DNA from: a virus
IMG/VR virus record: IMGVR_UViG_2757320370_000007
Span: 9,719-73,718 of that record
Length of the DNA: 64,000 nt
Strand: one strand, 5' to 3'
Positions 9,679 through 24,689 of the stretch are shown here, one piece after another (position 1 is the first letter of the stretch; each line of letters starts with the position of its first letter). The translations under genes were made by a program, and so were the position numbers. The notes under the pieces are model-generated. The model was not told where the DNA came from. It was given only the letters and a program-made list of their open reading frames with translations, and made no database searches.

Positions 9679-10033
9679 TATTTAATGCCTCCTGTTTTAT
9701 CTTTTCTACGTCTTTTTTATTTCCCGATAGTTCAAACTTATGTAACAGAGGTACTTCGTATTGTTTTGAAATTGTTTCTGCTGCACCGCAGAAGAATTTT
9801 CCCCAATTCATGTTGCCACTTCCGATTACACCTTTAATGTTTTTGTTATTTAGAGATAGAAAACGATCAACAGATTTTGGAACTTCTCCAAATCCAGTTG
9901 TGTATGTAATTAATACAAATGGTTCGTGGACTATTAAATCAGGAGTAATTTTGATACTTTTCATGTCTAACTTGTCAACAAACCTTTGGACATTTCCTGT
10001 CAACGAATCATAAACAGTGAGTAATTTAACCAC
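9671..10033 (-). CDS. nrdI: Flavodoxin-like NrdI
   Basis: YDSLTGNV, TYTTGFGEVP, GSGNMNWG, KFELSG. Confidence 0.95.
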   Translation of the reverse strand: MVKLLTVYDSLTGNVQRFVDKLDMKSIKITPDLIVHEPFVLITYTTGFGEVPKSVDRFLSLNNKNIKGVIGSGNMNWGKFFCGAAETISKQYEVPLLHKFELSGNKKDVEKIKQEALNIV

Positions 10034-21322: not shown

Positions 21323-22982
21323 TTAAATCTTTTCTCTGTAATCCTCAATAAATAACTGCATTGTCTTTGTGATTTTAAACTTTGGCTTATATTGCTTCCA
21401 ATAATTCATATTCAGTGTTCCAATCGCTTCAATCTCAGTGAATACTGGAACGCTGTCGAAGTACTCTGAATCAGTCTTAAACTTCATAAGTTGCAGAGTA
21501 TCACAGTCAATTTTAACGGTGTTGAGGGACTTGCCCATTAGTTTCTTGTCTGAGATGAATAATCCCTTAATGAGAAATTTGCCCTCTTTAAAATGATTTC
21601 CTGTGACACGATAGAACTCAGACAGGTAATTAATTAGTTTTTCATCAATCTGGTCAACATCAAATTCTAAATCATAATACATGGAATTGTCTGCTTCAAA
21701 ATTATCTAACTTCTCATTCAGCTCTTGACGCAATAATTCGAGATTTGTTTTGTAGATCTGTAGTCCTCCTGCTGCGGGATGGCCTCCAGTGTAAAATACA
21801 TTGTCACAGCTATCAAGTAAATCTAACATTGAGAAATCTTCTAGTCCCCGAAAACTTCCTGCGTATGTATCTTCATTGTCACCTTCGCCAAGTACGATTG
21901 CTGGCCTATTAAATGATTTGGACAATTTCTGTCCCACTAATCCATTCATCCCTTTACCAAGCGTTGGATCAAATACAATTACGACTTTATCATTCTCGTC
22001 GACAAATGGCTTCAACGCTCTTAACGCTTCTGTCTGGACTTCCTTGCGTCTTTCATTTGCCTTGACAAGTTCTTTTGCTAGTCCTTTAATCTCAGGACTA
22101 TCCGTATCGCACATCAAAAAGTCAATTGCTAACTTAATATTATCAAATCTTGTAGCAGCCGTTACAGCAGGGCTTACACCGTACAGAAAATCAGTTGCAG
22201 ATAGATTATTGAGGTCAAAATTCATAGCCTCAAATAACGTTCTAAGTCCTGCATGACGTAGGCTTTTAAGAGACAGCTTGGCATAATATCTGTTTTCTAG
22301 TTCCATCATCGACATCATATCAGCCATTAGTGAGAATCCTGGCAAGTCATCGAGTTTATTTGCATAGTATGTATCCATGTAATCGTCTATTACTTGGCAA
22401 ACTTTAAAAACCAAGAGTCCACCACAAGCATTTTTATTGGGATACTCGCAACCATTTTGCTGCGGATTCACCAAAATCGCATATGGATTTTCAACAGTGA
22501 CACTGTGGTGATCAATAATTAAACAGTCAATCCCTTTAGATGTTAGCAATTTCATAGTCTCTACATCATTTGATGAGCTGTCTACTGCAATCAAAAGTTT
22601 AGTTTGTTTGGGTATCTGCTCAATCAATCCCTCAATTGAATGACCTTCAGATCTTTCATTACAGACATAATATACTTCGTCAGTGAAATTCAATAAATAC
22701 TTATACATAGTCACTAACGAAGTTACTCCATCGTAATCCTAACTAATCGGGGTCGCCAGTAATCGTAATAGGCTCACGGTTGCGAATAGCCAGAATGATT
22801 CGGCTTGCCAATGCATCAATATTTTTAAGTAAATATGAATCACAAATCACATTAGAGAGTGGATTCAGAAATTGATCAATATTAGTGATTCCATTTAGTT
22901 TTGCAAGTTTAGAATATGTATTATCATATGAATCAAACGGTGTAACAGGTTTGCGTTGCTTCCATTTCAATGGTTCGATCAC
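21323..22982 (-). CDS. recJ: RecJ-like DHH ssDNA exonuclease split by a 10-nt gap (22736-22745)
   Basis: GDPD*/DYDGVTS motif I, AVD, IIDHH, ADMM, GSFR, GGHPAAGG; about 549 aa if the gap is skipped. Confidence 0.85.
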
Positions 22983-24689
22983 TCCTTAATACAAATTTTA
23001 TCTAATTGTTATTTTGAATTTTTCAGGCATTGTAATATTGTGGTAGTTGTTCATTGCAGCCATGAATTTATACGTAAGCTTCTTGCTTTCGCGTCCAGTG
23101 AATTTGTCGATGATTCTGATATTTACCTTTCTGTTCATATCTATCACTCTCCAGATCAAATATTTAATTACTTAGTACCTATACTTCACTCTTATTGTAA
23201 ATTCAGCGTTTTTCATTCGCTCAATCTGACTAATGGCGTCAGTAATTTTTTCTTTTATCTTTTTTGATCTACTAAAAAAATAGATTAATTTATATTTTCT
23301 AATCCTCTTTTGTAATAATGACTCAGAAGACCAAATATCAATTTCACTCATTGTTTACCACCTCCATGATTTGATCAAAGATAAGTTTTACTTAATTATC
23401 TATATTGGACGACCTTCCACATCTTCCGCACTCTTCGCATTGACTAAGCGATTCTTCGTCCAGACATTGAGAACAAGCGTGTTTAAACCATTCTTCATCT
23501 CCCGGTCTAACAAGGAAATCATCTCCGCACTTAGCACAATATAATTTTTCAAACATCTTATGTTTATCTCCTCTCTACGTCCAATCAGGATTTAAATAAT
23601 GAGCCAGTTCACTCACATATTTATCGTTTATGTATTCCGGTGTCAATCCTTCCATCAAACTTACTACGACTTCATATAGTGCGGTTTTGTAATCTGAATT
23701 ATCAGCAAAATAAATTGCGCTTATTGCAGCATTTAGTGCTTCTCTAGCACTACCACTTAGATCATTGTCGATGAAGTTTTTCATTAACTCATCCATTAGC
23801 TTCCCATTCTTTCATTGGCTTCATCGATTATTTCGTCAAAAATGCTCTGAAGATTTTTGGCTTGCTGATTCCATGAACGAATACCTTCTGGAGTAATTTC
23901 AATATCGCTATTCTGAAAGGTGGATGATAGATGTTGGATATCAATTTGAAACGCTCTAAACCTGTTGAAGAAATTCTGATCTGTATTGATTTTTGCCATT
24001 TCATTTTTCCCCCTTAAAATTTGATCAAAGTATGTTTTCATCGCCTATTCTTGGATGGCATCGCAGAACACTTTCCATTCTGTCTTCTTATTTCTTTGAA
24101 CCTTTTTGATCCCCTTGTAATTTTGGCAAGCTCTTACTCCTCCAGGGAATTCACTAGAATAGATACAAGTACATTCCTCTCTCTTTTCTCCTTTGTTTTT
24201 ACCAAACAACGATTCCACTTCTCTGCTACCATATTCTCTTTGAACTGGACACTCTGATTTCAATACATGAACCTCTTCAGTTCCACCACCAATTGCACAG
24301 CAGCTTGAGAAAATTTCTTTCTTCATTATTTCACCTCATCATTTGTTTAGAGCTTTAGTATTCGTCATTGTATTTAACAAATTCATCTTCAGCACCTTCA
24401 AATGCTCTCTCGTATACACTGTCAAGCATTGTCACGATAAAATTGTCACCTGATTCAGTGTCTGCCTCATCGAGCAGATTTTCAATTAACCACTTAGCAA
24501 ACTCTTTCCGTTTACCACGTCGAATTTTTGCTTCGTTCCAATTATTTGGGCTTGCATTAAAACCTCTTACAAGATTGCTGATAGGCATCTCAATAATTAC
24601 TTTTTCATTTGTTGATCTTACTGTAAAACCTGTAATGTTCTTATCTTCAATTTTCATTAATGAACTCACCCTTCTTCTGGGATATATAT

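Follow-up and report, generated by a model that had tools for sequence, protein, structure and literature searches.

A 64,000-nucleotide (nt) stretch of DNA from the viral record IMGVR_UViG_2757320370_000007 of IMG/VR (positions 9,719 to 73,718; referred to hereafter as the window) carries a recJ gene that is interrupted by a gap of 10 nt beginning with a stop codon. We regard it as probable that this is the gene for a RecJ/YorK-type single-strand DNA exonuclease of an SPbeta-like Paenibacillus prophage and that it works across the gap by means of a short translational bypass. Sixteen distinct loci, the window and 15 diverged relatives, have a gap at this codon boundary, and 16 further loci were uninterrupted. 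The gap is real, old and recurrent, and both halves of the gene, together with the codons that follow the gap, are under purifying selection at the protein level. The window is part of a one-contig genome of 8.5 Mb, which was assigned to Paenibacillus because its nearest relatives are all Paenibacillus; the nearest named relatives of the window recJ are the SPbeta YorK-type RecJ-like exonucleases.

The initial annotation of this DNA had described a 10-nt gap at 22745-22736, flanked by matched codons, as a candidate for programmed bypassing, and the sequence agrees with that description. Read along the minus strand, on which the gene and all its features lie, the codons GGC (22757-22755), GAC (22754-22752) and CCC (22751-22749) lead to the take-off codon GAT (Asp, 22746-22748), the last sense codon ahead of the gap. 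A TAG stop (22743-22745) follows immediately, and the upstream open reading frame (ORF), 22982-22743, ends in GDPD and this stop. The middle of the gap is TTAG (22742-22739). Within it, and in the downstream frame, is a second TAG (22739-22741). The gap closes with the landing codon GAT (22736-22738), which matches the take-off codon and abuts the resume codon TAC (22735-22733); GAT and GGA, ending at 22727, come next. When aligned by MAFFT with 16 uninterrupted relatives, the untranslated TAG-TTAG-GAT (22736-22745) was a clean insert.

The two pieces of the gene are complementary. The upstream piece, 75 codons from a TTG (22746-22970), ends in ITITGDPD and holds the first strand and the first two Asp residues of DHH motif I. 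The downstream piece, 470 codons from TAC (21326-22735, beginning YDGVTSL), provides the rest of the DHH domain and the DHHA1 and RecJ OB domains recognized by Pfam; its frame is open from 22738 and closes at a TAA (21325-21323). The gap thus separates the second Asp of motif I (DxDxDG) from the third, and in the window the motif GDPDYDG is complete only once the 10 bases are skipped. That skipping them would restore the motif had been pointed out at the outset, and the uninterrupted relative L018 reads GDPDYDG, exactly the product predicted from a hop. The Pfam DHH match of the window downstream piece alone begins at profile position 13. In the uninterrupted relatives the match begins ahead of the junction position, so that the DHH domain spans the junction. 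The RecJ chains 8y30 and 5f54 of the PDB also align across the junction of an uninterrupted relative, with GDYDADG against GDPDYDG.

The DNA of the relatives was taken from NCBI genomes, IMG/VR, JGI, ENA and Logan. Protein homologues of the downstream piece fell into two groups, full-length proteins with GDPD(Y/F/L)DG and many products of ~460 amino acids (aa) that start just past the junction. When the 75-aa upstream piece was used as the query, the matches formed 18 clusters at 90% identity, all of which ended in GDPD; their sources were P. odorifer, P. spiritus, several strains of P. polymyxa, compost and other samples. The gap was present in assemblies from 16 sources, which rules out an assembly error. 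Megablast with the gene as query found no match among phage records, and the protein-level search of phage records gave only relatives of less than 40% identity, in which the query was matched in a single piece. A pattern scan of species-representative genomes yielded four loci, all uninterrupted, and a scan of metagenomes yielded one, a duplicate of L016.

The gapped alleles share a strict plan. In every one, GAT is followed by TAG, two to four variable bases and GAY or GGY (Y, pyrimidine), and then by TAY or TTT, GAY and GG. The TAG was present in 16 of 16 loci and the base after it was always a pyrimidine. The landing triplet was GAT in 11 loci, GAC in one and GGC or GGT in four, and the middle of the gap occurred in nine variants. 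Alleles of 10 nt consisted of TAG, then TTAG, CTAG, TTGG, TTAA or TTCA, then GAT; the six alleles of 9 nt had CTA-GAC, CAA-GAT, CCA-GGC, CCA-GGT or CTA-GGC after the TAG, and the one of 8 nt had CA-GAT. All three frame relations between the two pieces are therefore represented. The suggestion that related genes might have a variable gap at GDPD with matched codons was thus confirmed, with a GAY triplet in 12 loci and GGY in the remaining four. On a tree of 13 loci, at least four changes of gap length and at least three of landing class were counted, yet the TAG stop, the G-R-Y triplet (R, purine) and the resume codon were retained despite the changes in length. The take-off GAT, invariant in the gapped loci (16 of 16), was dropped as a possible signal, as 15 of the 16 uninterrupted relatives also use GAT there.

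Each of the 16 gapped loci has ~75 upstream and ~470 downstream codons with no second stop or shift, in keeping with the initial description of both halves as intact. Among ten gapped loci, for which synonymous divergence (dS) ranged from 0.35 up to saturation, the ratio of non-synonymous to synonymous substitution (dN/dS, method of Nei and Gojobori) was 0.02-0.21 in the upstream and 0.03-0.08 in the downstream piece. Selection is not relaxed in the gapped genes, since their uncorrected proportions of non-synonymous to synonymous differences (pN/pS, 0.12 and 0.14) were not above those of uninterrupted relatives (0.10-0.21). The sister loci L007 and L017, both of which have GGC as the landing triplet, gave a dN/dS of 0.03-0.05 at a dS of 0.8-1.0; the form that lands on GGC therefore seems to work as well. 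A recent inactivating insertion, one of the alternatives raised initially, does not agree with these data: the gap is old and recurrent, it is found in 16 loci and not in one assembly, the downstream half is not under relaxed selection, and purifying selection acts on both halves.

The same is seen immediately past the gap. When changes were counted by parsimony on the maximum-likelihood (ML) topology of 13 loci, the eight codons 3' of the gap had undergone 28 base changes, of which two altered the residue, both exchanging Y and F at the x of DxD. In the seven codons for DGVTSLV there were 25 synonymous and no amino-acid changes. From their pattern of substitution, these codons appear to be read in the downstream frame, which has no feature ahead of them that could start translation. 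Restart at an internal GTG or ATG was rejected, because the codons upstream of such a restart evolve as coding sequence and the restart codons are not conserved. In the window an in-frame GTG follows the resume codon at 22714; the first canonical in-frame start after the gap is codon 21 in L015, and L032 offers just an ATG, at codon 10.

These features suggest how the gap might be crossed. A ribosome would arrive at GAU (Asp) with UAG in its A site. In place of termination, the peptidyl-tRNA-Asp (anticodon GUC) would unpair, the mRNA would slip forward by 10 nt, and the tRNA would re-pair with the GAU at the end of the gap. Decoding would restart at UAC and give a single protein of ~545 aa in which motif I is intact as GDPDYDG; the tryptic junction peptide expected from such a product is EPITITGDPDYDGVTSLVTMYK. 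The genome has four tRNA-Asp genes, all with the anticodon GTC, reading GAU and GAC. On balance, ribosomes would seem to hop over the gap in this manner, in what would be a short natural translational bypass, or stop-hop. The hop itself, its efficiency and the landing on the near-cognate GGY triplet of four relatives are what we infer from comparison of the sequences. The earlier suggestion of a programmed bypass thus gains support from 16 loci with matched or near-matched landing triplets and three gap lengths.

A hop is compatible with 16 of 16 gap alleles, and a hop by peptidyl-tRNA-Asp would be, as far as we can infer, the only single mechanism that fits them all. An open overlap for a +1 frameshift exists in only four of the 16 alleles, those of 10 nt with TTGG or TTCA, and in five loci (the window, L012, L016, L021 and L033) the shift is blocked by a stop. 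In the window this stop is the downstream-frame TAG at 22741-22739, beyond the TAG of the upstream frame; the initial claim that a simple +1 shift is blocked by an in-frame TAG is therefore correct. Readthrough of TAG is feasible only for the six 9-nt alleles and was rejected for the window, where, with a gap of 10 nt, the downstream piece falls in the +1 frame. The 8-nt allele permits neither readthrough nor a +1 shift, its downstream frame having a TGA across the Pro and Asp codons. A suppressor tRNA was also rejected: none of the 91 tRNAs of the genome has a CUA anticodon, and the window contains no tRNA genes. So was an intron or intein, and with it the tiny spliced element proposed initially as an alternative, as the insert is of 8-10 nt, out of frame and without structure.

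Several observations weigh against hopping. No conserved stimulatory RNA signal was found: RNAalifold, applied to ten loci, gave only a 4-bp helix of CCUG with YAGG, which places the stop in the loop and in which the changes are one-sided, none of them compensatory. Some alleles can form a helix of 7-8 bp, and the fold of the window is weak (-3.4 kcal/mol). When every possible gap middle was enumerated, the native middles were not consistently the most stable, the share of alternatives that were equally or more stable ranging from 0.04 to 1.0. No feature of the nascent peptide distinguished gapped from uninterrupted genes apart from an Arg in NRE, which is His in four uninterrupted sister loci; the upstream peptide forms part of the enzyme and is conserved as such. 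Four alleles have GGY in the place of the cognate landing codon that would be expected, and pairing there would need a G-U pair at the middle position. In E. coli, hops that lack stimulation are inefficient, and the yield might accordingly be low. Since no convincing stimulator was found, the efficiency of the hop may be low or may rest on features that we did not see. Lastly, the 16 gapped loci are related and their genes are mosaic, so that counts of loci are not counts of independent events. A further candidate signal, a Shine-Dalgarno-like GGAG within the gene ahead of the take-off codon, was rejected as not conserved, since it occurs only where the Gly codon is GGA and the window has GGC.

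The same rules (the stop, the matched triplet, independence of frame, and translation of the codons past the gap) would be obeyed if the enzyme were made in two pieces. Release factor 1 would free the 75-aa peptide at the TAG, and the same ribosome, keeping its deacylated tRNA-Asp, would re-pair at the GAT and resume at TAC with no start codon, the two polypeptides then assembling. We know of no example of bacteria using a start-codon-free restart in this way, which counts against such a scheme. The cut would also fall between the second and third Asp, in one metal-binding loop within the first strand-loop of the DHH fold, and the pieces lack added tails that might hold a two-piece enzyme together. 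Phage enzymes split by the insertion of homing endonucleases are known, as in T4 genes 39 and 60 and the split NrdA (bioRxiv 10.1101/2022.08.31.505936). Even so, a two-piece RecJ seems unlikely.

The alleles could, on another reading, lack a common mechanism, with readthrough of TAG in the 9-nt alleles, a +1 frameshift in some 10-nt alleles, and little or no active enzyme from the alleles that are blocked. The six in-frame alleles and the four with an open overlap would fit such a mixture. Readthrough or a shift would, however, place three extra residues within DxD, which is invariant in 32 of 32 relatives and in the solved RecJ structures. Moreover, the five blocked alleles are under equally strong purifying selection, and length has switched repeatedly between 9 and 10 nt with the triplet before the resume codon retained. 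We give this mixture of mechanisms little credence.

Could the gap simply have killed recJ and become common through the spread of a homing cassette, the halves being recent or re-copied from working genes? The gap is scattered on the gene tree, a LAGLIDADG gene is linked to it in five loci, the genes are mosaic, and of the two pieces the upstream one is often the less diverged, as later spread would give. Against a selfish scar of this kind, the gap has its history in common with the upstream piece and with the codons no more than 24 nt away, and it is these regions that show a dN/dS of 0.02-0.2 at a dS of 0.35 to more than 1 and the 25 synonymous changes against none in amino acids. None of the 16 loci has acquired a second lesion, and the eleven loci without a nuclease gene still keep both halves intact. 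An inactive gene is thus distinctly improbable. Removal of the gap before translation, by DNA slippage between GATTA repeats in part of the population or by RNA editing or splicing, is very improbable: GATTA does flank the gap of the window, and precise loss has occurred in evolution (L018 is a gapped allele minus the gap), but in other alleles only GATT, GA or G is left of the repeat, the sequence offers no homopolymer on which transcription could slip, 8-10 bases are to our knowledge far below the size of any known intron, and the assemblies from 16 sources all keep the gap.

The relatives offer a possible source for the gap that ribosomes would hop. In L015 and L033-L036, recJ is immediately preceded by an ORF of ~280-305 aa, and in most of these loci the ORF extends over the start of recJ. 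The product of the ORF matches LAGLIDADG_3 above the Pfam cut-off and the endonuclease family PHROG 4645. Such an ORF was found in five of 16 gapped loci and in none of the 16 uninterrupted loci, and the gapped loci that bear it include at least four P. polymyxa strains. On an ML gene tree of 32 sequences, the state of the gap had changed at least three to four times. L036 was placed outside the main gapped clade, and L033, which has both gap and nuclease, was nested among the uninterrupted L018, L019 and L020 (support 98/96). Compared with the uninterrupted L019, L033 has a 906-nt insertion just ahead of the recJ start, 44 mismatches in 215 nt of the upstream piece, and nine mismatches in the first ~45 nt past the gap, after which only 1-3 mismatches per 100 nt remain. 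This divergent tract, which ends ~45 nt past the gap, looks like the result of a homing event that would have brought in the gap together with the nuclease gene and a replacement for the start of recJ, as judged from this one clear pair (L033 and L019) in a mosaic gene family.

The gap may, then, have arrived with a free-standing LAGLIDADG homing endonuclease cassette, an origin that we put forward tentatively. It would disrupt the target of the nuclease in the motif-I DNA, and the lineage of the window would since have lost the nuclease gene and retained the gap. Most gapped loci, the window included, have no nuclease gene. A tblastn search with the L015 nuclease found no homologue of the homing endonuclease in the whole genome of the window; this counts against the account, which is for that reason based on the relatives. 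The initial proposal that the gap is the footprint of a mobile element thus holds as to its possible origin, given the LAGLIDADG cassette of the relatives. The GATTA repeat cited with it is not conserved, and a cassette explains where the gap came from and not how it is decoded. As a separate observation, the recJ genes of L033, L018-L020, L015 and L030 are strongly mosaic, their pairwise identity swinging from ~75% to 98% between 300-nt blocks; this implies that these prophages recombine frequently.

The closest parallel is the bypass in gene 60 of phage T4 and its mobA cassette, reportedly the work of Huang in 1988, Bonocora in 2011, and Manning and Atkins. In both systems UAG directly follows the take-off codon, and the gap interrupts a DNA enzyme of a phage in a metal-binding motif. 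In T4 mobA/gene 60 the gap moves along with an adjacent homing endonuclease gene, and conversion extends only a short way beyond the landing site; the relatives of the window recJ would seem to follow the same pattern. Some T4-like phages have lost mobA yet kept the gap, and some recJ lineages may likewise have lost their nuclease. In T4 the bypass insert protects against the nuclease (bioRxiv 10.1101/2022.08.31.505936). The differences are equally clear. The gap of gene 60 is 50 nt (20 nt in one Aeromonas clade), in contrast to 8-10 nt in recJ, and its take-off codon is Gly GGA in place of Asp GAU. MobA is an HNH nuclease, whereas that of the recJ relatives is of the LAGLIDADG family, and the gene interrupted is that for the large subunit of topoisomerase II in one case and recJ in the other. 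There is no sequence homology between the two, recJ has no demonstrable take-off stem-loop or nascent-peptide signal, and its host is a Gram-positive lysogen. The recJ cassette is therefore analogous, and not homologous, to that of T4.

Other precedents are more distant. According to a 2016 review, synthetic stop-hops of 6 nt operated in E. coli at an efficiency of about a per cent (Weiss et al. 1987; O'Connor et al. 1989; PMC5009743). Those constructs were artificial, whereas the recJ site is natural, spans 8-10 nt and has been kept by selection across diverged prophages. The terminase gene of the Streptomyces phage phiHau3 resembles recJ in having a short coding gap in a phage gene and a slow-to-decode A-site codon at take-off, and expression of the gene in E. 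coli yielded a junction peptide that confirmed its bypass (PMC10732093). There the trigger is the rare sense codon UUA and a regulatory role has been proposed, in contrast to the stop codon and homing endonuclease context of recJ. The numerous byp elements in the mitochondria of Magnusiomyces capitatus are likewise short inserts that are skipped in translation, with take-off and landing codons not always perfectly matched, as in the GGY alleles described here. They are 27-55 nt long, GC-rich and hairpin-forming (Lang 2014; Nosek 2015; cited in PMC5009743). Unlike recJ, they occur in mitochondria, where decoding is relaxed, and the codon in the A site is an unused one. Finally, YorK of the B. 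subtilis phage SPbeta and the RecJ-like exonucleases of large Bacillus phages are of the same family and the same replication and recombination module as the window recJ. In the phage records searched, the query was matched in a single piece, in contrast to the gapped gene of the window.

The start of the gene also deserves comment. The ORF finder opened the upstream ORF at GTG 22982, which gives 79 codons; from TTG 22970 there are 75. The TTG is more likely to be the true start, and was preferred because it aligns with the ATG of the relatives and lies 11 nt after a Shine-Dalgarno-like AAGGAG (22982-22987), a motif that most relatives have at the same distance. The product of ~549 aa proposed initially is obtained from GTG 22982, and the more likely joined protein, from TTG 22970, is one of 75 + 470 = 545 aa. 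In a number of uninterrupted loci (L018, positions 1270-1290, and L019, L020, L023, L002-L005 and L022) there is no ATG, GTG or TTG ahead of the conserved WKQK start. These loci have ATA 11 nt after AAGGAG, where the gapped relatives carry ATG or TTG (22970-22968 in the window), and their recJ genes may start at that ATA. Public gene calls begin them tens of codons further downstream.

Annotation of the gapped genes is also affected. In databases they are entered as a 75-aa hypothetical protein and an N-terminally truncated 'DHH family phosphoesterase'. The downstream piece is annotated inconsistently, as a 'DHH family phosphoesterase' of 410-496 aa (L015:1501-2964, P0008 and other entries), and the P. 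polymyxa entry CP134463 has it begin at a downstream-frame ATG that overlaps the upstream piece.

Around recJ the DNA is AT-rich and made up of small genes, most of which are encoded by the minus strand. Weak matches to a DnaB-like helicase and a primase were found within a few kb of recJ, and Pfam searches of the ten ORFs neighbouring recJ gave nothing beyond these weak, sub-threshold matches. The helicase frame (30790-30620, minus strand) is open for 57 codons ahead of its first ATG with no canonical start, and this lead begins just past the stop of the preceding 194-codon ORF (TAG, 30803-30801). When the window was scanned for further pairs of ORFs with a similar junction, none was convincing except this start-less lead. 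About 1.9 kb past the right end of the window, genes for tRNA-Met (CAT) and tRNA-Leu (TAA) stand side by side on the minus strand (C1:4099478-4099639); the pair might be prophage cargo or mark the attachment site.

Full-text literature searches found no report of a gap in recJ or yorK or of bypassing in Paenibacillus phages. The 2016 review lists few natural cases of bypassing, namely T4 gene 60, Magnusiomyces mitochondria and, as likely, Streptomyces phage terminases; it describes natural in-frame stop-hops as unknown, short counterparts of gene 60 as long presumed, and short stop-hops as functioning at a low level in synthetic constructs (PMC5009743). Work since then has added relatives of gene 60 (bioRxiv 10.1101/2022.08.31.505936) and experimental support for the terminase (PMC10732093). 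The recJ genes provide a natural series of alleles in sequenced, culturable Paenibacillus, with three gap lengths, matched and near-matched landing triplets, and loci with and without the endonuclease. With them the rules of short-range hopping, namely the context of the stop, the pairing at landing, the distance and the need for a signal, could be tested in a Gram-positive system. It is possible, and we offer this more tentatively than the cassette origin, that short stop-led gaps combined with hopping are a general way in which free-standing homing endonucleases immunise their own host gene: a cassette would break its target with 8-10 bases among the codons of a catalytic motif, and a hop to a matching triplet would preserve the enzyme. 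On that reading, recJ would be the earliest example of such a system from Gram-positive bacteria that can be cultivated and are genetically tractable (P. polymyxa and relatives). If the link with the endonuclease is true, the principle of mobA/gene 60 would extend to another nuclease family and another host phylum.

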